Source: a bacterium
GTDB lineage: Bacteria; UBA8248
NCBI GenBank assembly: GCA_965219955.1
Contig: OZ244799.1
Span: 2,080,001 to 2,144,000 of the forward strand
DNA length: 64,000 nt
Reading direction: 5' to 3'
Shown: piece after piece, positions 17,613 to 55,464 of the stretch
Layout: every line of letters begins with the position of its first letter
Numbering within the stretch: position 1 is the first letter of the stretch
Position numbers and translations under genes: made by a program
The notes under the pieces: model-generated
What the model was told of the DNA's origin: nothing
The model's database searches: none
The model's input: the letters and a program-made list of their open reading frames with translations, nothing else

Positions 17613-17687
17613 TCCGGCGTAGCTCAACGGCAGAGCAATCGGCTGTTAACCGATGGGTTGTAGGTTCGAATCCTACCGCCGGAGCCA
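17613..17687 (+). tRNA. tRNA-Asn(GTT)
   Basis: Acceptor stem TCCGGCG/CGCCGGA, anticodon arm ATCGG-CTGTTAA-CCGAT, T-loop GGTTCGAATCC, encoded CCA. Confidence 0.97.
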
Positions 17688-17711
17688 GGTTTTTTGCGGT
17701 ATATCCCGCCC

Positions 17712-18062
17712 TTACGCTCCATCCGCTTTCGAGACGAAATCCGAGAGCGCCTCTTTCACGAGGGCGTTCATGCTGCGGCCCCTCAAGGACGCCATGCGGG
17801 CGAGTTTCTCATGAAGGTCCGCACCCGGCCGCACGTTGAACGAACCGCTGTAAGGCTTGTTCGGCTCGATTCCTTCCGCCTCGCACGTTTCGAGATAATC
17901 GCTCACCGAATCCTGAAATGCCTTCTTCAACCCTTTGGCGGTTTCGGCTTCGTATGTAATCAAATCCCGCACGTGCAGCACCTTGCCGTGCAAGGTCTCG
18001 CTTTCCTCGTCGTATTCAACGGATCCGAGATAATTTTTGAATTTCAATACCGCTCCGATCAT
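17712..18062 (-). CDS. hicB: HicB family antitoxin
   Basis: 'YLGSVEYDEE...LHGKVL..DLITYE...F..SV.DYL..C...G.EP.KPYSGSFNVR' plus a C-terminal RHH-like 'LHEKL...SMNALV'. Confidence 0.9.
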   Translation of the reverse strand: MIGAVLKFKNYLGSVEYDEESETLHGKVLHVRDLITYEAETAKGLKKAFQDSVSDYLETCEAEGIEPNKPYSGSFNVRPGADLHEKLARMASLRGRSMNALVKEALSDFVSKADGA

Positions 18063-18126
18063 CTTTGGCCCCTTTCCATCCCCGTGATCAAATCTAATGT
18101 CCCGTATTTCAGCATTCGGATGAACC

Positions 18127-18381
18127 TCACAACAAACCGCCTTCGTCCAACTTCTTTCTTACCTCGCGTATGATATATGGCTTCAACTTGTCTTCGGCAT
18201 GGGGCTGGTGAAGGAAAATCCGGGGAGCCAACGCATGAATGAATCTTCGCCGGGAGCCACCCGTTCTTCCTCCCGTTGACTGCCGATAGCCCAGCCCCTC
18301 CAATAACTGAACCAATTCGTTCCATGTAAAATTCTTTGGATTCTTCCTGAATTTATCCAGCAGCTTCTCGTGTTTACTCAT
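18127..18381 (-). CDS. hicA: HicA family toxin (mRNA interferase)
   Basis: 'MSKHEKLL...PKNFTWNEL..LL..LGY...GGSRRRF...HQPH....LKPY'; lies upstream of hicB. Confidence 0.9.
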   Translation of the reverse strand: MSKHEKLLDKFRKNPKNFTWNELVQLLEGLGYRQSTGGRTGGSRRRFIHALAPRIFLHQPHAEDKLKPYIIREVRKKLDEGGLL

Positions 18382-18420
18382 CGTTCTCTTGTCTGAATAT
18401 CATAGGTTCAAAGACAAATA

Positions 18421-18483
18421 GCAACCAATATTCAGTTGCATTATAAAGTGAACTCAAGGAAATGCAACTGTTTTTTCGTTGCA
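18421..18483 (-). promoter_or_regulatory. hicAB promoter with two GCAAC-N9-GTTGC operators
   Basis: Palindromes at 18421-18439 and 18464-18482 flank a minus-strand TATAAT (18445-18440) and overlap TTGCAT (18467-18462). Confidence 0.7.
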
Positions 18484-18596
18484 AATGACAAGCCGAACCA
18501 TAAGGTATGAATGGAACACAAACTCGGGAGGAAAAAGACTTCACGAGGGGTGATCAGCCCCAGAAAAGGGCACCTACCCCCTTCCAGCGAATCTCC

Positions 18597-19847
18597 TCAA
18601 GCGCCGCTCTTCGCCTTCTCGAGCGTAGCGACGTTCACCGGGTGCGCGTTGCGGCGGCGCTTGTCGACGCGGATGCGCAGGCGCGCGGCCCCGGCGAGGC
18701 TCAGGCCCGCTTCACGCAGCTCGCTCCGGCTGAACCCCTTGCCGGGCCGCCAGTTCCCGCGCGAGTCTCTCACGAGAGGGAGGAACCCGTTTTCCACGGG
18801 GGAAGTTTCCGGGGGTTCGTCCGTCTGCTCCGGGGGCGATTCAGTGAAGACCTCGCTGTGTGATGCAGCCTCATCTTCTCGAGACGGATCAGGCCGGGGC
18901 GGTTCAGACTCATCCGGCGACGCTTCCGGGGCTGATGCCGCCAGGGGTTCCCCCACCTCCTGAACGATATTGTCAGCAGGTTCTGATTCGCTCTCCAGAG
19001 GTATTTCCGGCTCGGGCGCCGTCGCCTCTGCGGCGCTCTCCTCGACAACCGGGACAGCTTCGTCTTGCCCTTCATCCGAATCAGGCTCACCCGGCGCATC
19101 ACCTGATCCCGGCTCCGTCAGCAACTCCAGGTCGAGACCATATTCCTCGAAAGGGGCGGCTTCACGAGACGGCTCGGGCGCATCCGGCGACTCGTTTGCG
19201 CTCGCCGCGGCCAGGGGCTCCTCATCTTCCGGGACGGCATCTCCGATTGCCTGCGCCTCGCTCTCCTGCGGAATTTGCGGCTCAGATGCAGTCGCCTCCA
19301 CGGGGCTATCCGCCGCGTCCGTGGCGGCTTCCTCATGTTCCGAAACGATATCGGCGACAGCTTCCGGCTCGCTCTCCCGGGGGATTTCCGGCTCGGCGGC
19401 AATCGCCTCCGTTACGCTTTCCGCTACGACCGGGAATGCTTCGACATCCTGCCCGGACGTCTCAGCCTCATCCGGCGATTCGCCTGCTTCCAGCTCCCCC
19501 AGCGGCTCCAGGTCGAGGCCATATTCCTCAAAAGGCGCGGCTTCGCGAGGCGTTTCAGCCGCATCCGGCGGCTCACCCGAGGCCGGCGCCGTCAATGATT
19601 CCACGGCGGGGGCAGGATCGTTTTCCCGGGCATCCACACCGTTCGTCAAATCCGTGCGCGGCGGCTCATCGGCAGCCAGCAGTTCGAGCTCCATATGAGA
19701 GCCGTAGCTTTTGCCCTCCGTATCTTCCGTCGAATACGGAACGCCCGGTTCGATGGCCGTGGGAGGCGGAATTTCGTGCCCCTCACCCGGTTTGGCAGGT
19801 GCGGAATCCTTGCGCCGCGCGATACGGCTCAAAAATTTTTTCTTCAT
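18597..19847 (-). CDS. Acidic low-complexity protein with C-terminal ribosomal protein eL13 (L13e)-like domain
   Basis: About 350 aa of E/P/A/S-rich sequence with an internal duplication; the last 62 aa include 'WRPGKGFSRSELREAGLSLAGAARLRIRVDKRRRNAHPVNVATL', matching the eL13 signature. Confidence 0.8.
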   Translation of the reverse strand: MKKKFLSRIARRKDSAPAKPGEGHEIPPPTAIEPGVPYSTEDTEGKSYGSHMELELLAADEPPRTDLTNGVDARENDPAPAVESLTAPASGEPPDAAETPREAAPFEEYGLDLEPLGELEAGESPDEAETSGQDVEAFPVVAESVTEAIAAEPEIPRESEPEAVADIVSEHEEAATDAADSPVEATASEPQIPQESEAQAIGDAVPEDEEPLAAASANESPDAPEPSREAAPFEEYGLDLELLTEPGSGDAPGEPDSDEGQDEAVPVVEESAAEATAPEPEIPLESESEPADNIVQEVGEPLAASAPEASPDESEPPRPDPSREDEAASHSEVFTESPPEQTDEPPETSPVENGFLPLVRDSRGNWRPGKGFSRSELREAGLSLAGAARLRIRVDKRRRNAHPVNVATLEKAKSGA

Positions 19848-20074
19848 GATGATACCGCCCTCTTTCGGAAAAACTCACGAGTCCATAAACCATCGTCGAG
19901 TAAATACAGGGGGCGGTAAGGGAGGTCAGAAAACTTACGGGTTAAGACTAACGATAACAAAGACTTGGTGTCAAGCCGCGAATCACGGAGCGCGCTGACG
20001 GGTTTTTTCAATCAGCCAAAACACGCGAAACCGGGAAGGCCGTGGGGGAATCAATCGTTCAAACCGGATACGGA

Positions 20075-20392
20075 TCACCCATCCTTTTGATGGATGGTTT
20101 GCAAGTCTCGCCCGAGATCTTCGAGGTCATATTGGACAGGCGTTTTTCGAGTACGCGCGTAGTCCATCATCTCCCACAAAGAAACTCCCGCATCGCGCGC
20201 CGCCCGCGCAAGAGTGACCTTGCCGTCCCCGTAGAGCCGGGAATAATGCTCCAGCTTCCACTGCCGGACCGCGTTCGACAGCAACCTTCGCAGGGTGGTC
20301 GAACGGTCGGTCTGCTCCACATTCTCGATGAGTTCCAGTTCGCGGACCAGTTCCAGAGGGAGCCTCGCGCCCACCATGCGCTCTTTTTTCAT
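20075..20392 (-). CDS. UPF0175 family antitoxin with N-terminal RHH-like segment
   Basis: ATG overlaps the toxin stop (ATGA); 'LY..GKVTLARAARDAGVSLWEM...YDLEDL..DL'. Confidence 0.85.
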   Translation of the reverse strand: MKKERMVGARLPLELVRELELIENVEQTDRSTTLRRLLSNAVRQWKLEHYSRLYGDGKVTLARAARDAGVSLWEMMDYARTRKTPVQYDLEDLGRDLQTIHQKDG

Positions 20393-20904
20393 CTCTTCGC
20401 CTCTCTTGCGATTCTCAACACTTCCGCCACGACGGCCGGGGAGAGCCACAGGACCCGGGTGATGTCTTGAATAGTAACTTCCAAATCTTCCAAATCAATA
20501 TGTTCTCGCAAGTATGCTTCCAACAATACGCCGATGGTGCCCAAGTGTTCTATTCCCGCGGCGGTGGCCACGCTTCGGGCCTCTTTGTCGTCAACGATCA
20601 GTTGCAAGCCCCGCGCACCCGCAAGCGCGATAGATTCAGACTCCCCTAGATCGAGCCGGGATCGGCCACTTAGTCGTCGCATCAAGCTTTGTTCTTCGGT
20701 GGTCAAGCGAACAACCCGCAGCCAGCCGTCTTCCGCAGCGGATTCGAGTTGCTCTATACCCAAGGCGCGAACAACTCTACCAGTGTCGATTGTCTCCTCC
20801 TTCACGACAGGCCCTGTTATCACCTCACCATAAAGTTCGTTCAAGAGCCTCAGGCGGCCAAGTTTGGCAAGGACGATCAAAGGGGAGGCGTCGGCTACGA
20901 TCAT
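20389..20904 (-). CDS. DUF3368-containing PIN-domain (VapC-like) toxin
   Basis: 'MIVADASPLI.L', 'LDLGESESIALA', 'LIVDDKEAR', 'GTIGVL'; GGAGG RBS. Confidence 0.88.
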   Translation of the reverse strand: MIVADASPLIVLAKLGRLRLLNELYGEVITGPVVKEETIDTGRVVRALGIEQLESAAEDGWLRVVRLTTEEQSLMRRLSGRSRLDLGESESIALAGARGLQLIVDDKEARSVATAAGIEHLGTIGVLLEAYLREHIDLEDLEVTIQDITRVLWLSPAVVAEVLRIAREAKR

Positions 20905-20945
20905 TCAACCTCCTGATGGATTCACACCAAGACTCATGAAATGAT

Positions 20946-20964
20946 AACAAATGTTGCATTTGTT
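20946..20964. promoter_or_regulatory. Palindromic operator upstream of the PIN/UPF0175 operon
   Basis: AACAAATG-TTG-CATTTGTT, a perfect 8-bp inverted repeat about 40 bp upstream of the start. Confidence 0.55.
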
Positions 20965-21033
20965 TGCAATAAGGCTGCACGCTTGCCATCTCATCTGCTG
21001 ATTCGCAAATCGACTGTTGTCTTCACGTCCCCC

Positions 21034-21789
21034 CTACCCGCCCGCCAGTTCCTCGGCGGTGCGGATGATGAGTTCGATGTCCGCATCCCGCGAGAGCCGG
21101 TGGCCGCCGTCCTTGACGAGGGTCAGCCGTACGTCGTCGCTTTTGAGGACCTCGGACAGCTTCAAAGATACCTCCCAGGAGATCGTCTCATCGGCCATTC
21201 CGTGGATGAGGCGCACGGGGCAGGTCACATCGATCTCACCGCGCAGGAGCAGATGGTTCTCCGCCTCATCGAGCAGTTTTCTTGTGATGGGATACGGCTC
21301 CCCCCAGATGTTGGGCGCGTGCAAGACGTATCCCCGCTCGTCGAGTTCACGCTCCATCTCTTCGGTGAGCCTGTGTTTTTTGAAACCATCCGTGAAATCG
21401 GGACCCGACGCCACGCCCACGAGACCCTTCACGCGTTCGGGCCGGGCGAGAGCAACGAGCAGCATCATCCACGCGCCCATGCTCGATCCAACGAGCACCT
21501 GGGGCCCGCGGGCGACTTCATCGAGTATGGCGAGGGCGTCCTCCGCCCATTCCCCGATGGTCCCCTCCTCGAATTTTCCGGAAGATTCCCCGTGTCCGCC
21601 GTAATCGAAGCGAACGTAGGCGCGCCCGATTTTCCGGCAATGGGCTTCGAGTGCGCTCGCCTTCGTCCCGCTCATGTCCGAGCGGAAACCGCCCAGGAAC
21701 ATCAGGCCGGGCGATTCGCCCTCAAGCCGGAACCAGGCGAGCGAAGTCCCGTTTTCTCTATGCAGAAAACTCGAATTTGAGTCGGACAT
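21034..21789 (-). CDS. Alpha/beta hydrolase (ABHD10-like)
   Basis: 'FLGGFRSDMSGTKA', 'RFDYGGHGES', GSSMG, 'GGHRLSR'. Confidence 0.9.
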   Translation of the reverse strand: MSDSNSSFLHRENGTSLAWFRLEGESPGLMFLGGFRSDMSGTKASALEAHCRKIGRAYVRFDYGGHGESSGKFEEGTIGEWAEDALAILDEVARGPQVLVGSSMGAWMMLLVALARPERVKGLVGVASGPDFTDGFKKHRLTEEMERELDERGYVLHAPNIWGEPYPITRKLLDEAENHLLLRGEIDVTCPVRLIHGMADETISWEVSLKLSEVLKSDDVRLTLVKDGGHRLSRDADIELIIRTAEELAGG

Positions 21790-21796
21790 CTTGGTT

Positions 21797-22330
21797 TCAG
21801 GAGGAATTTTCGAGATGGTCGAGCAGCCGGGCGGGGACGCCCCGGATGGCGGCCTCCGCCGCCTCGTCGACGCAGTTCCCATCCTCGTCGAACACCTTGT
21901 GGACGCTCCCGACCGAAGCCTGACCGGGCAGAACCTCCCCGCCGACGTGGGTGAGAATGTGCCTCAGGTGCGCGAGGGCGTTGTCCGCGCTCGGCCCCAT
22001 CGCCACGCCCAGGATGGCGATGGTCTTGCCCTCGAACGTGGAGGGATAGCCCAGGTTGTCTATCGCCAGCTTGAGCGTGCTGCTGATACTGCCGTGATAC
22101 TCGGGCGTCGCGATGAGTATGCCCGCCGCTCCCGTCACGAGACTTTTCAGCATTTCGGGGTCTTTCGACTCGCTCGGCTCACCGGGCAGGGGCAAATCCA
22201 GTTCGCCCAGATGAACGCGGTTGATCTCGAAATCGCCCTTCCCCAACTCATCGAGCGCGAGCGCGAGGGCCTTATCGGTATTGTTCTGCGGCCTGCGGCT
22301 GCCGCCGAAGACAAGGATGTAGGGGGTCAT
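21797..22330 (-). CDS. NADPH-dependent FMN reductase (SsuE-like)
   Basis: 'GGSRRP' and 'ATPEYHGSISSTLKLAID'. Confidence 0.88.
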   Translation of the reverse strand: MTPYILVFGGSRRPQNNTDKALALALDELGKGDFEINRVHLGELDLPLPGEPSESKDPEMLKSLVTGAAGILIATPEYHGSISSTLKLAIDNLGYPSTFEGKTIAILGVAMGPSADNALAHLRHILTHVGGEVLPGQASVGSVHKVFDEDGNCVDEAAEAAIRGVPARLLDHLENSS

Positions 22331-22345
22331 GTCCGGTTTTTTCGA

Positions 22346-23452
22346 TTACGCGGCGACGCCGGCCGGTTCGGTCAGTACGACGGGTTCGGTATCCTTGAGA
22401 AGCGGCAGAACTTCTCTGCCGAAAATCTCCGCCTCTTCTTTGTGGGGCCATCCGTTCATGATGAAATGCCGCACGCCCGCGTCGTAATACTCGCGAATCA
22501 CGCCAGCGACCATATCCGGCGTGCCGACGAACATCGTTCCCGCACCGCCGCGCACCCTGTTCACGCCCATCCAGATCGTATCGGTGATCCAGAGGCTGTC
22601 ACGCGAGCCCATCTCGTTGATGCGCATCTGGCCGGTGGACTCGGTGACGTTCTTCATGTCGCTCCACGTGCCCGTGTTCGAGATGTCGCTCTTATCAATC
22701 AGCGCCTCGGCGGCGCGCACCGCCTCTTTCCTCGTCTCGCGCACGCAGACCAGATGGCGGATGCCGTAGCTGAGCGGACGCTCGCGCTCATACGCCCGGG
22801 ACTCGCGCCTGCCCTCCTCGATGTCCTTCCCGACGACTTCGGGTTCGGCGGCGTACATGACGTGCACGTCCCCGTGCTCCCACGCCACCCGCTTGCCGGG
22901 GTCCGAGCTTCCCGCCAGGAAAATCGGGGGATTGGGCTTCGTCACCCGCTCGGGGAAGATTCCCGCGTTTTCGATCTCGAAGAATTTTCCCTTGTAGTCC
23001 AGGGGACCCTCCGCGTTCCAGAGCTTGCGCACCACGTCCAGGAACTCGCCCGTACGCGCGTAGCGGTCGTCGTGCGGCATGAAATCCCCGTACCTTTTCT
23101 GATCCACGGGCGTGCTGCCCGTCACCACGTTCAGGGTGCAGCGTCCGCCGGTGAGATAATCGAGGCTGTTCGCCTGCTGCGCCGCGTAGACCGGGCCGGT
23201 GATCCCGGGCCGGAACGCCACCAGGAACTTGATCTTCTTCGTCCGGCTCGAAATCGCGCCCGCCGTCGTCCAGGCGTCGATGCAGTGCGTGCCGCACGGC
23301 ACGAGGATGTTGGCGAAGCCCGCCTCCTCGGCCGCCGCCGTGACTTCCGCGAGGTAATCCAGGGTGGCGGGGCGATCGGGCGTCTTCTGGTTTACCTGCG
23401 ACCCGTCCCCCGCCCTGTGGGAGCAAAGCGCCCATATGTATTCGGTGGACAT
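22346..23452 (-). CDS. LLM-class flavin-dependent monooxygenase (SsuD-like)
   Basis: 'AAEEAGF..ILVP.G..C.DAW', 'FLVAFRPG', 'LNVVTG', 'HDDRYARTGEF', 'HF I..G.PH.EEA'. Confidence 0.9.
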   Translation of the reverse strand: MSTEYIWALCSHRAGDGSQVNQKTPDRPATLDYLAEVTAAAEEAGFANILVPCGTHCIDAWTTAGAISSRTKKIKFLVAFRPGITGPVYAAQQANSLDYLTGGRCTLNVVTGSTPVDQKRYGDFMPHDDRYARTGEFLDVVRKLWNAEGPLDYKGKFFEIENAGIFPERVTKPNPPIFLAGSSDPGKRVAWEHGDVHVMYAAEPEVVGKDIEEGRRESRAYERERPLSYGIRHLVCVRETRKEAVRAAEALIDKSDISNTGTWSDMKNVTESTGQMRINEMGSRDSLWITDTIWMGVNRVRGGAGTMFVGTPDMVAGVIREYYDAGVRHFIMNGWPHKEEAEIFGREVLPLLKDTEPVVLTEPAGVAA

Positions 23453-23587
23453 CTTTCGTCTCCTCGGCGCCTCCCGGACGTGCGGAGCGCGCGCGTTGGA
23501 AGAAGCGTTGAAACTTCATGCGGGTCACGTCCCCCAAGATTAAAGCCATCGCCCTCACGGATCAAGTCCGCGAATCGGCGCCGATGC

Positions 23588-24180
23588 GGGGCCGTTGAAA
23601 AAGCCCTCGTCAAAGGAGCATCCCCCCTGAAAGAGAAACCCCATAAAGGCTCCCCCCCTACCCCCCCTTGTCAGGGCTGTTGAAAAAGCCTGATTCGAGA
23701 GCAGGCGGTATCGGGGGTTACGCGGCGGCCCTCCTTCCTACCGCGCAGGCGGCCACAAAACCTCATCCTGAGTAGGCGCGAAAGCGCCGTATCGAAGGAT
23801 GGAGGCGTCTCCCGTCTTGCGAGAGGGCATCCTTCGATACGCCGCCTTCGGCGGCTACTCAGGATGAGGAAAGTGGGGGCGGAGCCTGTCCCGAGCGAAG
23901 TCGAGGGGCCACTACTCAGGATGAGGCGGAGAGGGGTTTTGGTTTTTTTTGCCCCCCCCCTGGCAAGGGCTTGTTGAAAAACCCCCTGAGAGGATGATGG
24001 CAACACCCTTGAAAGGGAAACCCCATAAAACCAACCCCCCCTACCCCCCCTTGTCAGGAGGTATGAAAAGGTGACGCCCGCCGCCGGTTGAAGGGCTTTT
24101 TTTTTTCTTGCCCCCCTGACAAGGGGGGGTAGGGGGGGTTGCCTTTATCCTCTGAGAAGGTGGGCTTTTTCAACAACCCC
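23588..24180. mobile_element. Nested MITE/REP mosaic C
   Basis: Three left-type termini (about 23588, 23673, 23967) and one right terminus (24180); CCCCCCTTGTCAGG/CCTGACAAGGGGGG arms; CCTCATCCTGAGTAG...CTACTCAGGATGAGG cassette. Confidence 0.8.
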
Positions 24181-45702: not shown

Positions 45703-46644
45703 TCATGCCGGAATCCGGCGGCCCCTCCATGACGCCACGGATTCCAGGACGCAAACGACACCGGCCAGAGAATCCCAGCCCGAGCTATGTCCTATCTTGT
45801 CCAACTCACGCAAAGCGGAACGCAAGCGCGCCTCATCCGCTATCCCCAGCGCCGAAATCGTCTCATGCAGGGCTTCAGTTCCCTGGCCTCCGGCCGCGCA
45901 CTCCATATGCGCGCGACTGATTTTATTCGTCCGCTCTTCAGCCCGTTTCAAGACATCACCGGACACTTTTTCCAAAATGCCCATAAAACCCTGCGCGCGC
46001 AACGCTATCATCACACCGCACCAAAAATCATCTCCCGACGGCGTGAGCCCCGGGCCGAGGCCAACGAGCCTGCGGGCAATGGCAGGAAATTCGAGGTTTT
46101 CCCCTTGATCCAGAGAGTGCGACAACCAAAGCCGGAAGTCCGAGATTCCCTTCCAGGAGACTGTTTGAAACGCGTCCTCATTCGAGATTTCCTCGCCGCC
46201 CACAACCTGCGCGATGAGCGGGGCCAGACCCTCCCGGGGCCCCGTTTCGGCTATCCACTGAACGAGAACCGGGAGATTTTCCAGAAAAAACTCCAAATCC
46301 CAGCCGTCAGGCAGCGGCTCCGGTTCCCACGCCACCGGGCGGGATATATCGATTTTCATCCGGGGGCCAAGTTGCATCCAGCCATCCCGGATTTTGGCGG
46401 GGCTTCCCGGTTCTACGATTTGCGTGAAATCCACGTCGTCCGAGAATTCACAAAGCGCATTCAAGGGTCCCGGCCCGATACCCTTATCGCCTATGCACGC
46501 GACCCGCCCGAATGTATTTTCCACATACAAACTTCTACGAAACACACCGATGATTGTCGCCTCACCCGGTGAGGTGAAGAATTTTTTAGCGAACGCGCCT
46601 GCAAGAACCACTCGGAGTGTATTTGGCATAAAAAAGACCTGCAT
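45703..46644 (-). CDS. DUF2877 family protein (AllH/YlbF-like)
   Basis: 'LVGLGPGLTPSGDDF' and 'IGHSSGWDSLAG'. Confidence 0.8.
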   Translation of the reverse strand: MQVFFMPNTLRVVLAGAFAKKFFTSPGEATIIGVFRRSLYVENTFGRVACIGDKGIGPGPLNALCEFSDDVDFTQIVEPGSPAKIRDGWMQLGPRMKIDISRPVAWEPEPLPDGWDLEFFLENLPVLVQWIAETGPREGLAPLIAQVVGGEEISNEDAFQTVSWKGISDFRLWLSHSLDQGENLEFPAIARRLVGLGPGLTPSGDDFWCGVMIALRAQGFMGILEKVSGDVLKRAEERTNKISRAHMECAAGGQGTEALHETISALGIADEARLRSALRELDKIGHSSGWDSLAGVVCVLESVASWRGRRIPA

Positions 46645-46723
46645 TATGAAGCGATTGTTTCAGCCTGGAAAGAAAATCCCCCCACCCACACAAGGGTGAG
46701 GGGTTTGTTCGCATATGCAATTT

Positions 46724-47065
46724 TCATCCACACCCAGGACCCCTGGTCTCACTCGCCGCAACCCCGGATGGCACAAGCGTACCTGCAAAGTTCGGGTCCG
46801 CCTGTTGTTTTTCAACCAGTTCGCCTAATTGCGACAGCAGCATCTCGCGTTTCATCAATCCCAAACGGTATATGCCCATCGGATTTATAAGCTTCATATA
46901 GTAATGGTTTCCAGCGTCATATTCCGTAGAGCACGCAGAAGGTTTTTGGGCGATGGAAAGAGGCCCCCCAAATACATCTGCAAATCGGGACAGGATTTCC
47001 TCATGATGTAAATCCGCCGGTATTTCGGGAAATCTGACCAAGAGTTCCTGGATAGTCATCGTCAC
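46724..47065 (-). CDS. Hypothetical protein (113 aa)
   Basis: AAAGGAG RBS; globular-looking sequence; no family recognised. Confidence 0.65.
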   Translation of the reverse strand: MTMTIQELLVRFPEIPADLHHEEILSRFADVFGGPLSIAQKPSACSTEYDAGNHYYMKLINPMGIYRLGLMKREMLLSQLGELVEKQQADPNFAGTLVPSGVAASETRGPGCG

Positions 47066-47192
47066 AACTCCTTTATCAGTTGATCATTCAAACGCAACAA
47101 CCCACTCATTTTAGCAGATATCGAACAGCCCGGCTCCCTGCATTCTGATGCTGCGACACTAAAACGAGCAAATCTCAAGAACAGCACAAGGA

Positions 47193-49166
47193 TTACATTT
47201 CCCGGATAAAGCGCGCAGCATAACTTCTTACATCTTTCCCGTTCAGAACATGGAATCGACGTATGCGGGCGATCGTTTCCCCAGAAAATCGACCAATAGG
47301 TATGTGAATCAGATGCTTCTTATACAACCGCGCAATCTGCCGCCAGCGTGTATTTGGAGGGTGCGGACTCACCAGGGCGATGAATCGCTCTTTCGAATGA
47401 AAACATGCCCCTGCAATCAATCGCTCCTCCAGTGTCTGTGTGTAGTGAAAGTGCGAATCCCGCCAGACATCCTCGATGTACCTGGGAGGAAAAACAAAAA
47501 ATGCCCCGCCATACTGAGATTCCGCGACCCCCGGCCCCACCAGGTTGTTCTCAAACGGAGTCGCATACATGCAAAGAGTTGATTCTTCATCATGTTCCGC
47601 ATACCACATCGTTCGCCAGGAGTACTTTCCGGCATCGGCGGGCGTGTCGAACAAAAAAACGACGACCTCCAGGTTCCCTCGCGCAGGGGGAATTTCTTTT
47701 ACATAAAGGTCGCCCGTATGCCAGTTGCGAAGCGTTTCCCTGATGTCCAGCCCATCTTTTATCGACGTCGTGAATTTCTCGGTACGCGCCAAATCCTCTC
47801 CCAACAACGCCTTGGCTTGCTCGCGCACATGGGTATGAAAACTCTCTATCGCATCATCTTCCGGCGGCCAGGAACACATGCCGAAAGGATTCCACCTCTG
47901 GGCCCAATTCTTACTTTCAAACGGGGTGGGCTTGGGCTTGAGGGAAATACTCCTCCAGGTGACGGCTGAACCGCCCAACCGAGACTTCATCGTTCCGACA
48001 TCTCCACCGGGGAATGCCGCACGGCCCACACCCATATGGACAAGAGCATCTTCATTCGATGAAGTTTTTTCTGGCTGATACGGATATTTCCTTGCAGTCT
48101 CAAGCAAAGAGAGGGCAAAAGCATCTCCTGCGGTTTGCTTTGCCGCCAGGGCGAGGGTGAACAAATCCGGCGTCAATCTCCTTCCCTGAAGCGTCAGGTT
48201 CCGGACATATTGCAAGAAAATCTGGAGTCTTTGAGGCGTTACCCAGTTTTGCACGGGCCGATGTTCCTGGAGCCATGCCGTTCTCGCCTCCACGAGGAGT
48301 TCCTTGACGCCGTCGATAGAAAGATTGGAGTCCCCCAGGAATTCTTCACGTTTTTTTTCGTATAAATACGTCAGATAGGGAAACTCCCCCAAGAGGAAAG
48401 CCAGAGTATCCTCCGATACTCCATACTTTCGGGGCGGGTTAAGAGACGCGCCTTCATGCGACTCGAATAATTCCTTATCACCGGACGGCCCTTCTCGGCA
48501 CGCCGAGCGAACCCAGGGCCAATCCATCGCGGAACATACGAAAACGATGCGCTTATACCTGGCCTCGAGTTCCAGTAAGGCGTCGGCCATCCAGCGGATT
48601 CTCGCAGCACGCTGTGTCGAGGGAGAAGGCTTTGGAGCTACCGTCAAAAGAGTGGCTGCAAAAGCCTCCATCGGTACTTTTTTCAGCGCGTACGGATCCG
48701 GCAGCGCATGAACATCCTGATGGAAACGCTCCACTTCCATATCCACAAAAACCCTGGGAATACGCTCTCCCATCGCGACTCTCAAAGCGGAAATCACGGG
48801 TTGGCAAGGGTCGATGGGCACATAATTACAAGAAGACAAATTGGATTCATCCGCCAACGAATCTTCTTGAGCTCCAAAATCATCTTCCGCCTCGGGGTAA
48901 GCATCCCATGGCTCATCAAACCCTGCTTCATCACTTCCGGGATATGATGGCGTATCCTCATTCATCGATACGATGGAGACATATGGGAGGTCATCCACGC
49001 CTGCTTCTACTTCGTGCTGAAATGACGGAGGCAGGGGAATCGCAATACAATCGGGCTCAAGTCGCAAAATCCTGTCGCGCACTTCGACGGCAAAGTCCCC
49101 CGATCCGTGGATGACAGGAAGTACGCTGGTGCGATCGGTGATATTCAGGAAACCTCGCGCCACCAT
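47193..49166 (-). CDS. Uncharacterised 657-aa partner of the MoxR-type ATPase
   Basis: Long ORF starting 3 nt after the ATPase stop; 'LPVIHGS', 'R...MA..L', 'KDGLDIRETLRNW'. Confidence 0.8.
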   Translation of the reverse strand: MVARGFLNITDRTSVLPVIHGSGDFAVEVRDRILRLEPDCIAIPLPPSFQHEVEAGVDDLPYVSIVSMNEDTPSYPGSDEAGFDEPWDAYPEAEDDFGAQEDSLADESNLSSCNYVPIDPCQPVISALRVAMGERIPRVFVDMEVERFHQDVHALPDPYALKKVPMEAFAATLLTVAPKPSPSTQRAARIRWMADALLELEARYKRIVFVCSAMDWPWVRSACREGPSGDKELFESHEGASLNPPRKYGVSEDTLAFLLGEFPYLTYLYEKKREEFLGDSNLSIDGVKELLVEARTAWLQEHRPVQNWVTPQRLQIFLQYVRNLTLQGRRLTPDLFTLALAAKQTAGDAFALSLLETARKYPYQPEKTSSNEDALVHMGVGRAAFPGGDVGTMKSRLGGSAVTWRSISLKPKPTPFESKNWAQRWNPFGMCSWPPEDDAIESFHTHVREQAKALLGEDLARTEKFTTSIKDGLDIRETLRNWHTGDLYVKEIPPARGNLEVVVFLFDTPADAGKYSWRTMWYAEHDEESTLCMYATPFENNLVGPGVAESQYGGAFFVFPPRYIEDVWRDSHFHYTQTLEERLIAGACFHSKERFIALVSPHPPNTRWRQIARLYKKHLIHIPIGRFSGETIARIRRFHVLNGKDVRSYAARFIREM

Positions 49167-49169
49167 GAA

Positions 49170-50144
49170 TCAATCGTCTCGGCCGGGGTGCAAGGGGCTA
49201 TCGCCTCCAAAGAAAATATCGCCGAAATCAAGTGGAGGAGGCTCATCGCCGAGAGCCTGTCGTCTTCTGTGCGCAAGACTTTTCAAGTCCAAGGCATCAT
49301 CTCCCAACACCTTGGTGAGCGACTCTCTCCATGCTTCGTCTTGAGAGAGTGGGTGCTCCGGGTCCTGCGCGAGACGTTTCAGGGCGAATTGAAGGATGTG
49401 GATTCCATCCCGAGGGGAATATTCAAGGTCCAGAGCATGGGCTTCCTGCAAAAACTGCACCGTCAAGGCCAACATCTCATTGGGGGCAAACGGCAAGTGA
49501 TATTTCAGAATGGCCAGTTCATCTTTCTTGTTCGGGAATTCAAGCGCGAGGGTCGGCTGGAGTCTCGACAGGATGTAATCGGGCACCTCGTATGTCGAGG
49601 CATCTTCATTCATCGTCACACAACAGCGAAAATCCGGGTGCGCCTTTACCGTAATCCCCGCAACGATAGACTCCACATAACGGCGGTGATCGAGCAACGG
49701 AGCCAGCGAGGCCCAACTCTTCTCGCTCATCCGGTTGCCCTCATCGAGCACACAGACGCCTCCCCGTATCATGGCCGTAACGAGAGGGGATGCGTGATAG
49801 GCGATTTTCCCTGATTCCGCCAAAACGGGCGTGATCAAGAGATCTTCCGGGCGGGTATCGGAGGTGCACTGATAAATAAACAGTTCCTGGCCTCGTTCCC
49901 GCGCCGCCGCCATCGCCAGCGTGGTTTTCCCGATCCCCGGGGAACCAACAATTCTCGGAGAAAGAGAAAAGTCTTCTTCCGCAACCACCATCCAGCAGGC
50001 CTGAAGCTGGCGAAGCACTTCTATCTGGCCGATCCACTCCTGGTCGGAAACGGTGTGCCTGCCCAGATGCAGGGATACGCCTTCGATTTCCACTACTCTC
50101 ACTTCTGACTCTTCATTGCCTGATGTTTTATCGTGCAAAATCAA
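49170..50144 (-). CDS. MoxR/CbbQ-like AAA+ ATPase (AAA_5)
   Basis: Walker A GSPGIGKT, '[11 protein letters not shown]', 'SPLVTAM..GG', Walker B VLDEGNR, 'AHPDFR...TMN'. Confidence 0.88.
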
Positions 50145-50208
50145 CTCCTCATTTCAAAATTCGCATCAAACGGTCTTGGCATCCCACCCTTGCATCCGGG
50201 GCATGCTA

Positions 50209-50955
50209 CTAATCCGTAAAATATCCCCCGTTTACATCCAGGGCTTCTCCGGTGATATGCGCAGCTTCCTCACTTGCAAGAAACAAAGTGGGCGGCACCA
50301 ATTCCGCAGCCGTCGCGAACCTCCCCATCGGGTGTTTCTCCAGCGCTCTTTTGTACAATTCCGGCCCAAACTCTCGCATCAATGGCCCGTCAATCGGCCC
50401 GGGGACCAAACAGTTTACTGTCACTCTGGTTTTCGCCAGTTCGCGGGCAAGGTTGAACGTCATGGCCAAAATACCACCTTTTGAAGCGCCATAAGTGAGA
50501 TTATGGCCCAGTCCCCCCGATTTTCCGGCCCCCGAACCAAACAGGATGATTCGCCCCGCCGGAGAATCCTTGAGTGCGGGCATCGCGCCTTTGATGCAAA
50601 AATAAGGCGCCAGGAGATTCACGTTCAGAGCGCGCCTCCAATCAGATTCACCAAGCGAGAGCGGGTCTTTCACCAACATGTTCGCCGCCGTGTGAACGAA
50701 GATGTCACATCCACCAAGCCATGCAATCGCTTCTTTGCTCATGGCATTTAATTCATCAAAATTTTCCATATTGCAATGTATCTTCTTCAGCATCTCCTCG
50801 GAACCTTTGATGTGACGCAGTTTTTCTGAACTTCGACCCGTTGCGACAAGCTTTGCGCCTGTACCCAGAAATCCTTGAACGAGCGCTTTTCCCACATCTC
50901 CCGTGGCGCCGGTCAGGAGCACTTTTTTGCCATGAAAATCAAAACGAAGCGTCAT
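50209..50955 (-). CDS. Short-chain dehydrogenase/reductase (FabG-like)
   Basis: 'LTGATGDVG', YxxxK in 'YGASK', 'VNCLVPG', 'ITGEALDVNGG'. Confidence 0.9.
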   Translation of the reverse strand: MTLRFDFHGKKVLLTGATGDVGKALVQGFLGTGAKLVATGRSSEKLRHIKGSEEMLKKIHCNMENFDELNAMSKEAIAWLGGCDIFVHTAANMLVKDPLSLGESDWRRALNVNLLAPYFCIKGAMPALKDSPAGRIILFGSGAGKSGGLGHNLTYGASKGGILAMTFNLARELAKTRVTVNCLVPGPIDGPLMREFGPELYKRALEKHPMGRFATAAELVPPTLFLASEEAAHITGEALDVNGGYFTD

Positions 50956-51108
50956 CCTGTTTCTCCCAAAACAAGCGCATAACTTTCAACCAGCCCCTTC
51001 CCCTGATATATATCGAATAAGATACAATATCGACTAAAGGATAGCATTTTTGATAAAGGATTATCTTTTCGTCGCTTAGCATGCGAAACGACACCGTGGA
51101 GAACACCC

Positions 51109-52374
51109 ATGAATTTGCTTGACGAACTAAAACTCCGCGGTTTGGTCCATGATCACACAGACCAGACGCAAATGATGAGCGCATTACGAAAAGACGCGAT
51201 AAGCCTTTATTGCGGTTTTGACCCCACAGCCGACAGTTTGCACGTTGGAAATTTGATTCCCATAACGGGACTCATGCGCTTTCAACGCGCAGGACACCGG
51301 CCGATTGCCCTCATGGGCGGCGGAACCGGGATGATAGGAGACCCTTCGGGAAAATCAGAAGAAAGAAACCTCCTAAGCGCAGAAATTCTAGATCACAACC
51401 TCAAGGGAATCAGGACTCAATTCGAAAGGTTCCTGGATTTTGATGCGGGCTCAAACTCTGCGCGTATGATGAACAACGCGGAATGGCTGAACGAGATCCG
51501 TCTCATCGATTTTTTCCGCGACGTAGGCAAACATTTTCCTATTGGTTATATGATGGCGAAAGAATCTGTGAAGTCACGTATCGCCGATGCAGGAATATCG
51601 TACACCGAGTTCAGCTACATGGCGCTTCAGGCCTATGATTTTCTCCACCTGTTCGAAAAAGAGAATTGCACCTTGCAGATTGGCGGTTCCGATCAGTGGG
51701 GCAACATCACAGCAGGAATCGAGCTTATTCGGCGCGTCCATGGAAAACCCGCTTTGGGCATGACTTTTCCCCTCATTACGACTTCCGACGGCAGGAAATT
51801 CGGGAAAACTGAAGAGGGAAACATCTGGCTGGACCCGAAGCGAACCACTCCATACCGATTCTCGCAATACTGGATTCAGACGGACGACAGGGATGTCGGC
51901 AGGTTTTTAAGATACTTCACCTTCTTACCCGTTGATGAGATTGACGAAATTGAGAAAGAGCATCTCAAGTCCCCGGAGAAACGAGCAGGACAACGTTTCC
52001 TCGCTAAGGAATTGACGACATTCGTACATGGTTCTGCCGCAGCGCGCAGCGCGGAGCGCGCCGCCAAAATTCTTTTTGGGGCTCGACTCGATGACATCGA
52101 GGAAAATGATTTGCTCTCGCTGGTGGAGGAAATACCGATAACCCGAAAATCGGGAGCGCCGCCGTATCCGCTGATCGATCTTCTGGTGGAAACCGGACTT
52201 TGTAAATCGAAATCCCTGGCTCGAAAAGACCTGAAGGGCGGCGGCATCTATGCAAACAATCATCCCGTCAGCGCCGAGACGAGCACGCTGTCGGACGATG
52301 ATATTTTGTTCGGTCAATACATCCTGCTTCGGAAGGGAAAAAAGAACTATCATCTGTTAGAATTTGAAAGATAA
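51109..52374 (+). CDS. tyrS: Tyrosine--tRNA ligase
   Basis: 'YCGFDPTADSLHVGN' (HIGH motif), 'QIGGSDQWGNI', 'KFGKT' (KMSKS motif), C-terminal S4-like 'LRKGKKNY'. Confidence 0.97.
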   Translation: MNLLDELKLRGLVHDHTDQTQMMSALRKDAISLYCGFDPTADSLHVGNLIPITGLMRFQRAGHRPIALMGGGTGMIGDPSGKSEERNLLSAEILDHNLKGIRTQFERFLDFDAGSNSARMMNNAEWLNEIRLIDFFRDVGKHFPIGYMMAKESVKSRIADAGISYTEFSYMALQAYDFLHLFEKENCTLQIGGSDQWGNITAGIELIRRVHGKPALGMTFPLITTSDGRKFGKTEEGNIWLDPKRTTPYRFSQYWIQTDDRDVGRFLRYFTFLPVDEIDEIEKEHLKSPEKRAGQRFLAKELTTFVHGSAAARSAERAAKILFGARLDDIEENDLLSLVEEIPITRKSGAPPYPLIDLLVETGLCKSKSLARKDLKGGGIYANNHPVSAETSTLSDDDILFGQYILLRKGKKNYHLLEFER

Positions 52375-52516
52375 GCGAATATGGAAACCATCATTGGTCG
52401 CATTCTGGTGCAGGGGTTGAGCAAATCCTCCTGGAAATTCCGAGACATCTACAGATGGCGAAAATGAACTTGCGAATCAGACGACGCTTCAGCGAAGCCG
52501 AAGCAACCATTCAAAC

Positions 52517-53794
52517 ATGAACGAACGAAGAAGCGCTGCCCAGGTCGATTATCATGACCTGCCTCCCGAGTTTCACCAGTGGAAATGGCGTATTCTCATC
52601 GCTTTCTGCGTTTTCTACGCCTTCAACTATCTGGGCAGATTCAACTTCAGTCTGGTGCAATACGCGGTCATCCAGGATCTGGGCATCACGCGAGTCGATA
52701 CCGGGTGGATCAATTCATGGATGTTTTGGGGCTTCGCTTTCGGTGATTTGGTTTTCGGGCGAATCGCCGAAAAAATAGGCTACAAAAACACCATACTCTT
52801 CGCCGCCATTGCTACATCTCTGTTCAACTTCATCGCGAGTTTCGGGAATTCGATTACCACGCTCGCCATCCCCTGGGCGATGGTCGGTTTTGTGAACGCG
52901 GCCACATGGGGGCCCGGACTCGGCCTGGTCGCGCAATGGTGGCCCAGACGCGAGCGGGGGCAGGCGATTGGGCTCGTGGGAACGGCCGCCGGTATAGCGC
53001 TCCTCATCGTCTGGGCAGTCGTCCCCTGGACGGCTGCGCAATATGGCTGGCGAGTTGCGATTCGCTACCCTCCTTTGATCATCGCCGTTTTGGGAATCAT
53101 TTTTTATTTCATCGCCAAAGACAAACCCTCTGAACTAGACCTCCCTGAGTATATAGAGTCAGACCACGTATCCCGAGAAGCAGAAACGGCAGGCAGCGAG
53201 AGTGAACATGGACTGAAGGCGTATCTTCACTTGATGACCAATCTGCGCTTCTTTTTGGCGTGCCACGTAAAAGGACTGGACAACGTGGTTCGTTATGGTG
53301 TCGTCTCATGGGCGCCTTTGTATTACGCTCAGGTGGGTGGATTCAACCTGAAAGAGATGGGATTGCTGACCTTCGCTTATCCGTTAGGGTATTTGTTCGG
53401 ACCCATCTTCGGCGGAATCATTTCCGACCGATTCTTCAAGAGCAATCGGTCTATCGTCATCATACTCGCCGCCGTTCTAAGCGCCGCCGCGATGATGGGA
53501 ATCGCCTATGCGCCCGCCGATAACATTCCCCTCGCCGTTATTTTGCTCATTGTCGGTGGGTTTTGCGTCAACATGTCCACTGTGCAGGCGCTGGGGGTAG
53601 ACCTGGCCGGCAGGCGGCTGGCGGGAACAGCGGCGGGCGTGCTGGATGCCCATGGGTATATTTACGGCGCGTTGCAAGCCATATTCTTTGGATGGCTGTC
53701 TCTGGCGATTTCTAATGGATGGTTCTGGGTGTTCGCAACCATGGCGGCCAGCAGACTCATTGCGGTACTGCTCGTCTGGAGGGTGCGGGCGTAA
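52517..53794 (+). CDS. MFS transporter, OPA/GlpT-like family
   Basis: About 12 TM segments; 'YAFNYLGRFNFS', 'WWPRRERG', 'GTAAGVLD...Y'. Confidence 0.88.
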   Translation: MNERRSAAQVDYHDLPPEFHQWKWRILIAFCVFYAFNYLGRFNFSLVQYAVIQDLGITRVDTGWINSWMFWGFAFGDLVFGRIAEKIGYKNTILFAAIATSLFNFIASFGNSITTLAIPWAMVGFVNAATWGPGLGLVAQWWPRRERGQAIGLVGTAAGIALLIVWAVVPWTAAQYGWRVAIRYPPLIIAVLGIIFYFIAKDKPSELDLPEYIESDHVSREAETAGSESEHGLKAYLHLMTNLRFFLACHVKGLDNVVRYGVVSWAPLYYAQVGGFNLKEMGLLTFAYPLGYLFGPIFGGIISDRFFKSNRSIVIILAAVLSAAAMMGIAYAPADNIPLAVILLIVGGFCVNMSTVQALGVDLAGRRLAGTAAGVLDAHGYIYGALQAIFFGWLSLAISNGWFWVFATMAASRLIAVLLVWRVRA

Positions 53795-53848
53795 AACAGG
53801 TTATTTTCCTCACAAAAGTTGAGAGGTTTGCTTTTTCAAGCTTAACCA

Positions 53849-55246
53849 TCATTTCTCAATAGCCCGTCTCAAGCCTTTCAATATTTCCAACCGAATCCCG
53901 TTTTCATCATTTGTAAATTTTTGCTCGAGAAATGAAAGCAGGTGTTGAACCCAAATTGCCCGGTCCTCTTGTGACATCACCAAATACAAGGACGTCCCGA
54001 AACGCCATTCCTTGTCCGAGCCACGAACGATGACATCGAGTCGAAAGTCGTCCTGCCTCGCAAGAAACATCGCCGTTAAAAGATCCCGCCCATTCTCCAA
54101 ATCAAAGGGAAATGATTTTTTCGTTCCAACTCCGAATCGAAGATTCAAACCCAACTTCGTCGAATCGGCCCATTCCGGGGAATCAAAAACGACCGAAAGC
54201 AATTCAGGGGAGGCGGAAGCATCAACGCCAACCACGATATAAGTTTCACCACCTACCGTGAACCTCGCCGATGAGAGAAGGCTGCCCTCTTGATGTTTTT
54301 CGCTTAAAAATTCTATTAACCAATCGGGCAATCTCTCCCGTCCGGGATAAGCCGTGGGCGTTTGGCCTTCATTCAACAATTGGAGTTTGTTTGCCCAAGC
54401 GAGCAAAGAAACCAGCAATGGCGGCGTGGGACGCAGGATTTCCGACTCCCAAGGCGTCATACCGGCCATGACCCCATCAAGACTCCCTATCAATCCAGCC
54501 TGCAAATTCCGCCACGTCGTTTTTTGTTCAATGTCCCCTCCAGATTCAATCGAAATTCTCAGCCCCTCTATCGCCACCAACCGACTAACCAATCCGGACA
54601 AATGGTGATTTTCCTCCATCACTCCATACATTTTCCGGGCTTCGGCAACATTTTCAGCCAAAACATTATCATCAAGCCGTGAGTCCAGATTCACCGGCAG
54701 AGGAAGCAAACCGGTATTCGGGTCGCTGGAGCGTCTCCAAAGGCCGCGAGCGCCTTCTAAAGCAGCTCTCGCGGCCTGCTCCGTACGAATCTCCCAGACA
54801 CCGGAAAGTTCTTCTCGTATGGCGCCTTCACCGACCCCCTCGTCGAACATGTGCGCCAACCGCCGGAGCAACAAACTGAAAAACGCCGATTGCGCCTTCG
54901 CCATGGAGGACAATTTTCCGCGCCTCGACGTGAGGGCCGTCAACGCCAGATACAGGGTGCCGACCTCCGGCTTCATGCCCTGAGCGCCATACAGCGCCGT
55001 CAGCTTCTCCATGCGCTGAAGGACAAACCCCAACTCCTCACCGGCCAACAGCTTCAAATGGATAAAAGAGATCGGAAGGACCTGCTCAGGCAGGATGGGT
55101 TCCGCCTGGGGAGAAAAAAGCGTTTGGGTGAAATTTTGCCTGATTTGCTCGCCTACATCCCCGAAATTCTCACGCAGGTAACGCTCACAAGACGACTCCC
55201 ACCAATCGCAAAACAAGCTTAGCGGCGCGGTTGGAGACACCCTCAT
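53849..55246 (-). CDS. Hypothetical protein (465 aa)
   Basis: Long ORF with an ATGA overlap to the upstream small gene; no family recognised. Confidence 0.7.
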   Translation of the reverse strand: MRVSPTAPLSLFCDWWESSCERYLRENFGDVGEQIRQNFTQTLFSPQAEPILPEQVLPISFIHLKLLAGEELGFVLQRMEKLTALYGAQGMKPEVGTLYLALTALTSRRGKLSSMAKAQSAFFSLLLRRLAHMFDEGVGEGAIREELSGVWEIRTEQAARAALEGARGLWRRSSDPNTGLLPLPVNLDSRLDDNVLAENVAEARKMYGVMEENHHLSGLVSRLVAIEGLRISIESGGDIEQKTTWRNLQAGLIGSLDGVMAGMTPWESEILRPTPPLLVSLLAWANKLQLLNEGQTPTAYPGRERLPDWLIEFLSEKHQEGSLLSSARFTVGGETYIVVGVDASASPELLSVVFDSPEWADSTKLGLNLRFGVGTKKSFPFDLENGRDLLTAMFLARQDDFRLDVIVRGSDKEWRFGTSLYLVMSQEDRAIWVQHLLSFLEQKFTNDENGIRLEILKGLRRAIEK

Positions 55247-55464
55247 TCGCTCTCGGACATGGGTGATTGATTGTGCTCACCTATTGAGGCCGCAGTCGCA
55301 CGTGCCTTCTTCTGGAGCAAACGTCCGAGAGAAAACAAAATGACCGCGGAACCCAATATGACGAGTTGGATGGCATAGGCCGAAGGATTCGAAATGCCTA
55401 TGAGCAAGGCGACCCCGCAATCCACCATCGCGAGAATCTGAAGAGCGCGCCCCAGGCCAAACAT
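55243..55464 (-). CDS. Small membrane protein (2 TM)
   Basis: Two hydrophobic helices; start overlaps the aminotransferase stop. Confidence 0.65.
   Translation of the reverse strand: MFGLGRALQILAMVDCGVALLIGISNPSAYAIQLVILGSAVILFSLGRLLQKKARATAASIGEHNQSPMSESE

Follow-up and report, generated by a model that had tools for sequence, protein, structure and literature searches.

An eL13-like module at the end of an acidic protein

The window analysed here is a stretch of 64,000 nucleotides from a bacterial genome (assembly GCA_965219955.1, contig OZ244799.1, positions 2,080,001 to 2,144,000), in which a minus-strand gene encoding a protein of 416 amino acids, referred to below as the acidic gene and the acidic protein, lies between a tRNA-Asn gene and an alpha/beta-hydrolase gene, with hicA and hicB downstream of it and a toxin-antitoxin (TA)-like pair upstream (Table 1). 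An earlier note, made from the sequence, had described the open reading frame (ORF) as encoding a domain of ribosomal protein eL13 carried on a long acidic arm, and the ORF is exactly as described there. The protein starts with MKKKFLSRIARRK and ends with WRPGKGFSRSELREAGLSLAGAARLRIRVDKRRRNAHPVNVATLEKAKSGA, its basic C-terminus including WRPGKGFSRSELREAGLSLAGAARLRIRVDKRRRNAHPVNVATL, and consists of a short basic N-terminal segment (net charge +7), a long polyanionic arm that is predicted to be disordered, and a basic C-terminal module (net charge +9). This module of about 60 residues is, on the evidence of profile comparisons and structural modelling, homologous to the conserved core of archaeal and eukaryotic eL13, and is the only part of the protein predicted to fold. 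The accessible text of one study (PMC9932298) places eL13 in eukaryotic and in some archaeal ribosomes.

Table 1. Features of the acidic gene and its surroundings. Positions are those of the window unless stated otherwise; base 18597 is the first base of the stop codon of the acidic gene.
Feature	Position	Strand	Basis or remark
tRNA-Asn(GTT), one island edge	17613..17687	+	ARAGORN; borders the island in sister genomes too
hicB, 116 aa	17712..18062	-	Pfam HicB, E 2e-18
hicA, 84 aa; gap of 215 nt to the acidic gene upstream	18127..18381	-	Pfam HicA_toxin, E 5.5e-10
Acidic gene, whole ORF including stop, 416 aa	18597..19847	-	ORF list and translation
eL13-core-like module, residues ~351-416	18600..18797	-	Pfam, NCBIfam, PDB profile, hhalign, AlphaFold2, Foldseek
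Polyanionic arm, predicted disordered, residues 21-350	18798..19787	-	AlphaFold2, composition
Motif copy 2, YGLDLELL, residues 236-243	19119..19142	-	
Motif copy 1, YGLDLEPL, residues 109-116	19500..19523	-	
Conserved ELELLA stretch	19668-19697	-	Family alignments
Conserved EIPPPxAIEP stretch	19728-19778	-	Family alignments
Basic N-terminal segment, residues 1-20	19788..19847	-	
Shine-Dalgarno-like GAGGG, 10 nt upstream of ATG	19858..19862	-	Read from sequence
UPF0175 gene of the upstream TA-like pair	20075-20449	-	Pfam UPF0175, E 1.4e-8
PIN/DUF3368-like ORF of the upstream TA-like pair	20389-20904	-	Weak matches, E about 1e-3, below cut-off
Alpha/beta-hydrolase gene, other island edge	21034..21882	-	Pfam; adjoins the island in sister genomes
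Paralog L002	537-1659		Own genome, outside the window; a single additional G within a five-G run
Paralog L003	653-1656		Own genome, outside the window; frameshift, R399P, R374G

The Pfam profile of eL13 (PF01294, Ribosomal_L13e) matches the whole protein with 30.2 bits, above its curated cut-off of 24.9, and the last 67 amino acids with 34.4 bits; the match runs from residue 366 to residue 402 and covers only positions 62-98 of the 180 in the model. The NCBIfam profile of archaeal L13e (NF008914) aligns over positions 26-73 of 83 (E 7e-14), with a score of 51.2 bits (55.9 for the module alone) that lies under its equivalog cut-off of 96. A profile of 15 modules, compared with PDB sequences, had an eL13 chain (9e6q_AH) as its best match (E 1.5e-10); the DotG/IcmE matches in this search are many weak, partial ones to a GFS..EL..AG-like repeat. 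Alignment by hhalign to 31 short archaeal eL13-like proteins gave a probability of 99.6% and 46% identity over 61 columns, and two of the sampled clusters carry the names 50S L13e of Thermoproteota/Korarchaeota or 'large subunit ribosomal protein L13e'. Some proteins of the acidic family have themselves been named automatically as 'ribosomal protein L13e' in public records. A low-complexity or repeat artefact behind the eL13 match was ruled out, as the match sits in the non-repetitive basic C-terminus.

In the AlphaFold2 (AF2) model, built with 97 family sequences, the module has a predicted local distance difference test score of 75-94 and forms a beta-hairpin (residues 358-360 and 366-368) and three helices (374-379, 384-389 and 403-413). 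Its best 50 Foldseek matches in the PDB are all eL13 chains of ribosome structures, with a probability of 1.00 and root-mean-square deviations of 2.6-4.1 Å across 60-76 columns. Among the 97 sequences, W366, R367, G369, G371, F372, S373, E376, L377, L390, D395, K396, R397, R398, R399, H402, N405 and L409 are invariant, and the module shares with eL13 the core W/K-R-x-G-K/R-G-F-S..EL..AGL...A..L.I.VD.RRR..H..N...L, spanning essentially all of the conserved part of the archaeal protein of 70-100 amino acids.

The protein as a whole differs from eL13 in several respects. eL13 is a small basic protein (about 70-220 amino acids) with basic tails, whereas the acidic protein has a disordered acidic N-terminal extension of 350 residues, including the 330-residue arm with its net charge of -86; its 416 amino acids compare with 64-110 in the aligned archaeal relatives and 157-355 in solved eL13 chains. 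It is also encoded by a bacterial gene that is accessory to one genus and located in a variable island, and not by a core gene of its lineage, as would be expected of a ribosomal protein.

The arm is composed of 21% E, 15% A, 15% P, 9% S and 8% D. AF2 gives residues 1-350 block means of 38-57 and no secondary structure, the N-terminal segment included, in which no helix was modelled; approximately 84% of the protein is thereby predicted to be a disordered polyanion. The arm consists of diverged internal repeats, which appear in a direct-repeat search as 249-nt direct repeats (18945-19193 and 19326-19574, 73% alike), although Tandem Repeats Finder reported none, and a search of the ESM Atlas with residues 1-350 returned no usable match. 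Arm length differs between species and also between strains, where it changes by whole-repeat steps and small in-frame indels (contigs of runs X5, X6 and X8), in agreement with the range of 230-541 amino acids across the family.

Several short elements of this N-terminal part are conserved. The sequence KKxFLSRIxRRK at the N-terminus and the stretches EIPPPxAIEP and ELELLA are conserved across 20 and 97 aligned family members, and the motif Y-G-x-[DEG]-[LFM]-[ED]-x-L is present in all 97 family proteins in one to four copies each. The window protein has two, the first inside REAAPFEEYGLDLEPL and the second inside REAAPFEEYGLDLELL, which is the commonest form of the motif in family arms. Y109, G110, E114 and L116 are invariant in alignment A1 and nearly invariant in alignment A4, and the tyrosine, the hydrophobic residue and the leucine of the motif are spaced i, i+4, i+7, which would place them on one face of a helix. 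Small folded anchors with long acidic flexible tails that bear motifs for partners are familiar from the bacterial SSB tail, the ribosomal P-stalk and PopZ-type hubs. The acidic protein resembles these in joining a folded anchor to a flexible acidic segment with short hydrophobic/acidic motifs, but differs in having no sequence kinship with them, another motif and another order of parts.

The 97 homologues are 230-541 amino acids long, with module identities of 73-100%. In 11 ortholog or paralog pairs the ratio of nonsynonymous to synonymous substitution rates lies at 0.07-0.34 in the module, while the values are 0.25-0.55 over the first 60 residues and 0.28-0.54 along the arm, a pattern that marks the acidic ORF as a real gene under purifying selection. 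Of the two outcomes that the earlier note had named as refuting, a lack of profile and structural matches to eL13 does not apply, and chimeric assembly was rejected: contigs from two other studies (X5 record 14; X6 records 15 and 21), with a likeness of approximately 96-97%, run across the gene and its neighbours on both sides, hicAB and the TA pair, and all their differences in ORF length are in frame (a 15-nt deletion, a 3-nt difference and a duplication of 362+13 = 375 nt). This 375-nt repeat duplication corresponds to 125 amino acids and fits the family members of 541 amino acids (416+125). Run X1 is identical to the window but possibly derives from the source sample, and was excluded from this independent support. 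Near-identical copies of the gene occur in runs labelled as sponge or marine metagenome, and none of the sequencing runs listed as holding copies is an RNA run. In viral contigs, 31 pattern matches were found, none of which was confirmed. A search for a sigma-70 consensus promoter upstream of the acidic gene found none, and the two terminator-like hairpins that were found do not exceed the number given by shuffled sequences.

A genus-restricted family in a variable tRNA-Asn island

The fusion of arm and module recurs in other bacterial genomes, as an accessory gene confined to one genus. In a survey of 51 genomes of the window's phylum, in which a strong match was defined as E below 1e-30, strong matches were found in 17 of the 22 other genomes of the window's genus (1-3 copies each) and in none of the 19 genomes from the other genera of its family. 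The five genomes of the genus that lack the gene (G143, G145, G149, G153 and G154) are 94-100% complete, with G149, G153 and G154 at 94-99%. Related loci number 23, from 17 assemblies labelled as Nitrospinota metagenome-assembled genomes.

The window's own genome has three copies of the acidic gene. The two extra copies, L002 and L003, are members of a second paralog lineage or similar to it; this lineage is intact in other genomes and has metal ABC transporter genes and transposases as neighbours, but here both copies are split into two frames. The frameshift in L002 may be an assembly error, and L003 is probably a pseudogene, because its frameshift is accompanied by the loss of two otherwise invariant residues.

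In 17 of 25 family loci, from both paralog lineages, the acidic gene is closely followed on its own strand by a hicB-like sequence, with relics downstream of both L002 and L003, and the window's hicB is the sole Pfam HicB match in its 4.28-Mb genome. The linkage to hicB is specific and old. Its form varies: hicA stands between the acidic gene and a full-length hicB in six loci, as in the window; in five main-lineage loci without hicA, the hicB ATG lies 32 nt past the stop codon of the acidic gene, preceded by GGGAG, and the hicB ORF of 70-85 amino acids has lost its C-terminal DNA-binding half; six loci, including all four second-lineage copies that have hicB, contain only relics; and eight have no hicB. 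Constant co-occurrence with an intact hicA and hicB was not found, both being intact in 6 of 25 loci, with 11 truncated or relic and 8 without. The acidic gene is intact where hicB is truncated or lost, and thus does not depend on an intact hicB; the acidic protein also differs from HicAB in having neither a HicA nor a HicB domain.

The interval from the tRNA-Asn gene to the hydrolase gene (window 17613-21882) is a hotspot whose content varies among genomes of the genus (L049, L051, L054, L055 and L056). It is empty in G153 (about 180 bp), and contains a 548-amino-acid HNH-domain protein in G145, a nucleoside transporter and hicB in G154, and, in G143, a 660-amino-acid protein with an eL13-like module followed by a 1425-amino-acid DruE-like helicase and two more ORFs. 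A repeat of the tRNA 3' end, which would mark an integrated element, was searched for and not found.

Beyond the island, a 669-amino-acid ORF (window 21674-23683, plus strand) has no Pfam match and remains an open frame in 11 related loci (cluster c2); since its 5' end, as listed, runs into the opposite-strand hydrolase gene, the true start is probably further in. A separate region of the window (46000-56000) has a G+C content of 0.50-0.55, compared with about 0.62, and holds a gene for an AAA_5 (MoxR-like) ATPase beside a 657-amino-acid ORF without a Pfam match, together with genes for tyrosyl-tRNA synthetase and a major facilitator superfamily transporter and a 465-amino-acid ORF without a match.

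The module in partners of DruE-like helicases

A search of 1.84 billion representative proteins with a profile of the module found 889 proteins at E up to 1e-3. Among the best 150 of these 889, 16 belong to the acidic family and 78 to a second, long family, and the rest are mostly short archaeal-type eL13 proteins or fragments. Long-family proteins are mostly 700-850 amino acids in length, have the module at their very C-terminal end and contain no further Pfam domain. They form part of a widespread two-gene unit, in which the gene for a multi-immunoglobulin (Ig) protein of 660-970 amino acids is followed by one for a DruE-like helicase of about 1400 amino acids; the helicase gene comes directly after the long-family gene in 10 of 10 loci (L027, 3382-10378; L041-L048; L049, 5959-12202), usually with a 4-bp overlap, with the reservation that contig ends truncate L041 and L043 and that the match in L046 comprises the first 136 amino acids only. 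The partner helicase matches PADLOC DruE1 (E 6.5e-160) and has DEAD, Helicase_C and MZB domains. Distribution of the long family is patchy, a full-length copy being present in 3 of 120 genomes of one phylum.

The AF2 model of a long-family protein has an N-terminal helix (residues 3-21), a disordered stretch (22-184), a beta-rich region (190-706), whose domains match multi-Ig arrays in Foldseek, and then the module, in which the pattern of strands and helices is identical to that modelled for the window protein. By sequence, eL13 is the only match of the long family in the PDB, and PADLOC models did not recognise the family even at E 10. The unit looks like an undescribed variant of the Druantia type or one with a very divergent DruH, and the long family resembles the DruH of type III Druantia in layout, a likeness of architecture only. 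In the accessible text of two 2026 preprints (10.64898/2026.05.12.722862 and 10.64898/2026.05.13.724758), E. coli DruH is an Ig-domain array with a C-terminal domain, and the first of them describes binding of single-stranded DNA (ssDNA) at the interface of the C-terminal domain and Ig5; L13e and the ribosome are not mentioned in the accessible text of either.

The window protein shares with the long family its module (hhalign probability 99.4%, 45% identity over 67 columns) and the succession of a basic N-terminal segment and a disordered stretch, and the corresponding tRNA-Asn island of a sister genome houses a long-family member. It differs in lacking the multi-Ig body, residues 1-350 being disordered in the AF2 model, and in having hicA downstream and no DruE neighbour; no N-terminal homology between the two was detected by hhalign. 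The module is also found in other contexts, including a fusion to NusB (P0156; NusB E 2.5e-24), a 160-amino-acid protein (P0183) in which the module follows a basic N-terminus and a disordered stretch, and two archaeal proteins (P0226 and P0207) in which eL13 is combined with the helix-hairpin-helix domain HHH_5.

Pairwise hhalign identities among the acidic family, the long family and archaeal eL13 are about equal (45%, 46% and 41%). In a quick tree of the module (64 columns, unrooted, with 15 of 106 acidic rows sampled), the acidic clade has a Shimodaira-Hasegawa-like approximate likelihood ratio test value of 99 and falls among long-family modules with support of 75-82. A tree in which acidic and short archaeal modules were held apart from the long family, with short_P0130 outside the constrained set, was not rejected by the approximately unbiased (AU) test (p 0.88), and its log-likelihood was 68 units above that of the quick free search. 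As the three groups form three clans on an unrooted tree, the AU test cannot tell which two are closer. Acquisition of the module from archaea is possible on these comparisons, and an origin from a gene for a Druantia-type partner is just as possible. Where the earlier note had proposed a horizontally acquired or repurposed module, repurposing is borne out by its use outside a standard ribosomal protein, and archaeal acquisition is not, given the equal likeness and a tree that indicates no donor.

Possible roles of the acidic protein

The reading favoured here, tentatively and at somewhat less than even confidence, is that the acidic protein is a polyanionic adaptor or regulator that carries a portable nucleic-acid-binding module and acts in a setting of stress or genetic conflict, and is not a standard ribosomal protein. 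The eL13 core in bacteria would be a portable module for binding RNA or ssDNA, which would anchor a multivalent adaptor or regulator to nucleic acid or to a ribonucleoprotein; the charge of the arm would tune this binding by competition or mimicry, and its short motifs would be offered to partner proteins. A general nucleic-acid-binding use of the module is suggested by homology and by its domain partners (NusB, HHH and the DruE-linked family), and the ssDNA binding described for DruH lends support by analogy only. The leaning from a constitutive ribosomal role towards stress or conflict is due to the restriction to one genus, the five genomes lacking the gene, the TA island, the link to hicB and the Druantia partners.

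Several observations weigh against this reading. The nucleic-acid-binding role is deduced from homology and domain partners, and the module keeps exactly the eL13 core residues that would be expected at the rRNA site of eL13, so that a ribosomal target stays possible. The window's own genome has a DruE1 match of 19 bits only and no DruE, so that the Druantia link concerns the module and not the window protein, for which neither PADLOC 2.0 (E 0.01 and E 10) nor PHROGs v4 (E 0.01) has a family. The motif stretches receive low AF2 confidence and have no known partner. Position in a hotspot and TA neighbours are circumstantial, most genomes of the genus keep the acidic gene in synteny, and it stays intact in the many loci where hicB is truncated or absent.

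The alternative that survives best, although unlikely, is a lineage-specific ribosome-associated protein, in which the module would dock on the cell's own 23S rRNA at the place of eL13 and the arm would project to recruit or exclude factors. Retention of every conserved eL13 core residue, a predicted fold that matches ribosome-bound eL13, strong purifying selection on the module and a single conserved locus in most of the genus are all consistent with it. It is opposed by the confinement to one genus, with nearly complete genomes lacking the gene, by the location in a variable island and not among translation genes, by the decay of the paralogs, and by the use of the same module in a non-ribosomal family of Druantia-type partners.

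A role as a component of a HicAB-type cassette, either as a third partner or as an effector in the toxin position, with the module acting on RNA or ribosomes and the arm serving as a built-in or protease-labile mask, is rather unlikely. It would account for the presence of hicB-like sequence in both lineages, next to the only HicB of the genome, and for the short distance to a hicB with its own GGGAG where hicA is missing; the union of an acidic disordered part and a small basic part in one protein also recalls the similar acidic/basic charge pattern of antitoxin and toxin pairs. However, hicB is cut, relic or absent in 19 of 25 loci beside an acidic gene that is intact and under selection, hicA is present in only six, and, as all loci derive from one ancestral arrangement, the linkage counts as one event and not as a repeated association.

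It is improbable that the acidic protein is a cut-down DruH-like partner of the Druantia type, reduced to its basic N-terminus, disordered linker and module by loss of the multi-Ig body and of the helicase, and then retained for a new or residual role. Both of its ends are laid out as in the long family, with the identical pattern of strands and helices in the module, P0183 has the same minimal layout, the long-family/DruE pair of G143 occupies the same island, and the free tree places the acidic module among those of the long family. Against this, homology detected by hhalign is limited to the 67 columns of the module, tree support is weak and the tree with the long family apart scored better, the pair in the island has the opposite orientation, and the proposal addresses origin and not present function.

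A more speculative combination, similarly improbable, is a self-masked ribosome regulator: the module would sit on the cell's own 23S rRNA at the eL13 site, and the arm would either present its motifs in the manner of the P-stalk, bringing in, for example, the HicA RNase, or mask the module until stress removes the arm, the eL13 core then being an old portable nucleic-acid-sensing domain common to ribosomes and Druantia-type immune sensors. The last alternative, a secreted mimic of eL13 acting on the ribosomes, or ribosome assembly, of a host (such as a sponge) or of archaea (the earlier note had likewise entertained action on host or archaeal ribosomes), would fit the sponge and marine metagenome runs and the eukaryotic and archaeal occurrence of eL13 (PMC9932298, in its accessible text), but is very improbable, as the N-terminus has no signal peptide-like hydrophobic stretch when read by eye, no secretion-system genes were seen among the annotated neighbours, the module is as near to a bacterial family as to archaeal eL13, and nothing here favours action on host or archaeal ribosomes.

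The domain itself is already known; a full-text literature search and the accessible main text of Druantia and YprA papers yielded no account of the architecture, of the genus-specific biology or of the Druantia connection, and no description of a bacterial eL13-like domain. eL13 has been regarded as belonging solely to the ribosomes of archaea and eukaryotes, and its core appears here also as a free-standing unit in bacteria. It has at least two settings there: the end of an almost wholly disordered acidic protein specific to one genus, and the end of a partner of DruE helicases. If the module binds nucleic acid, as the favoured reading proposes, it would provide a testable handle on how Druantia-like partners sense their trigger, and would add another domain to those common to ribosomes and immune systems.

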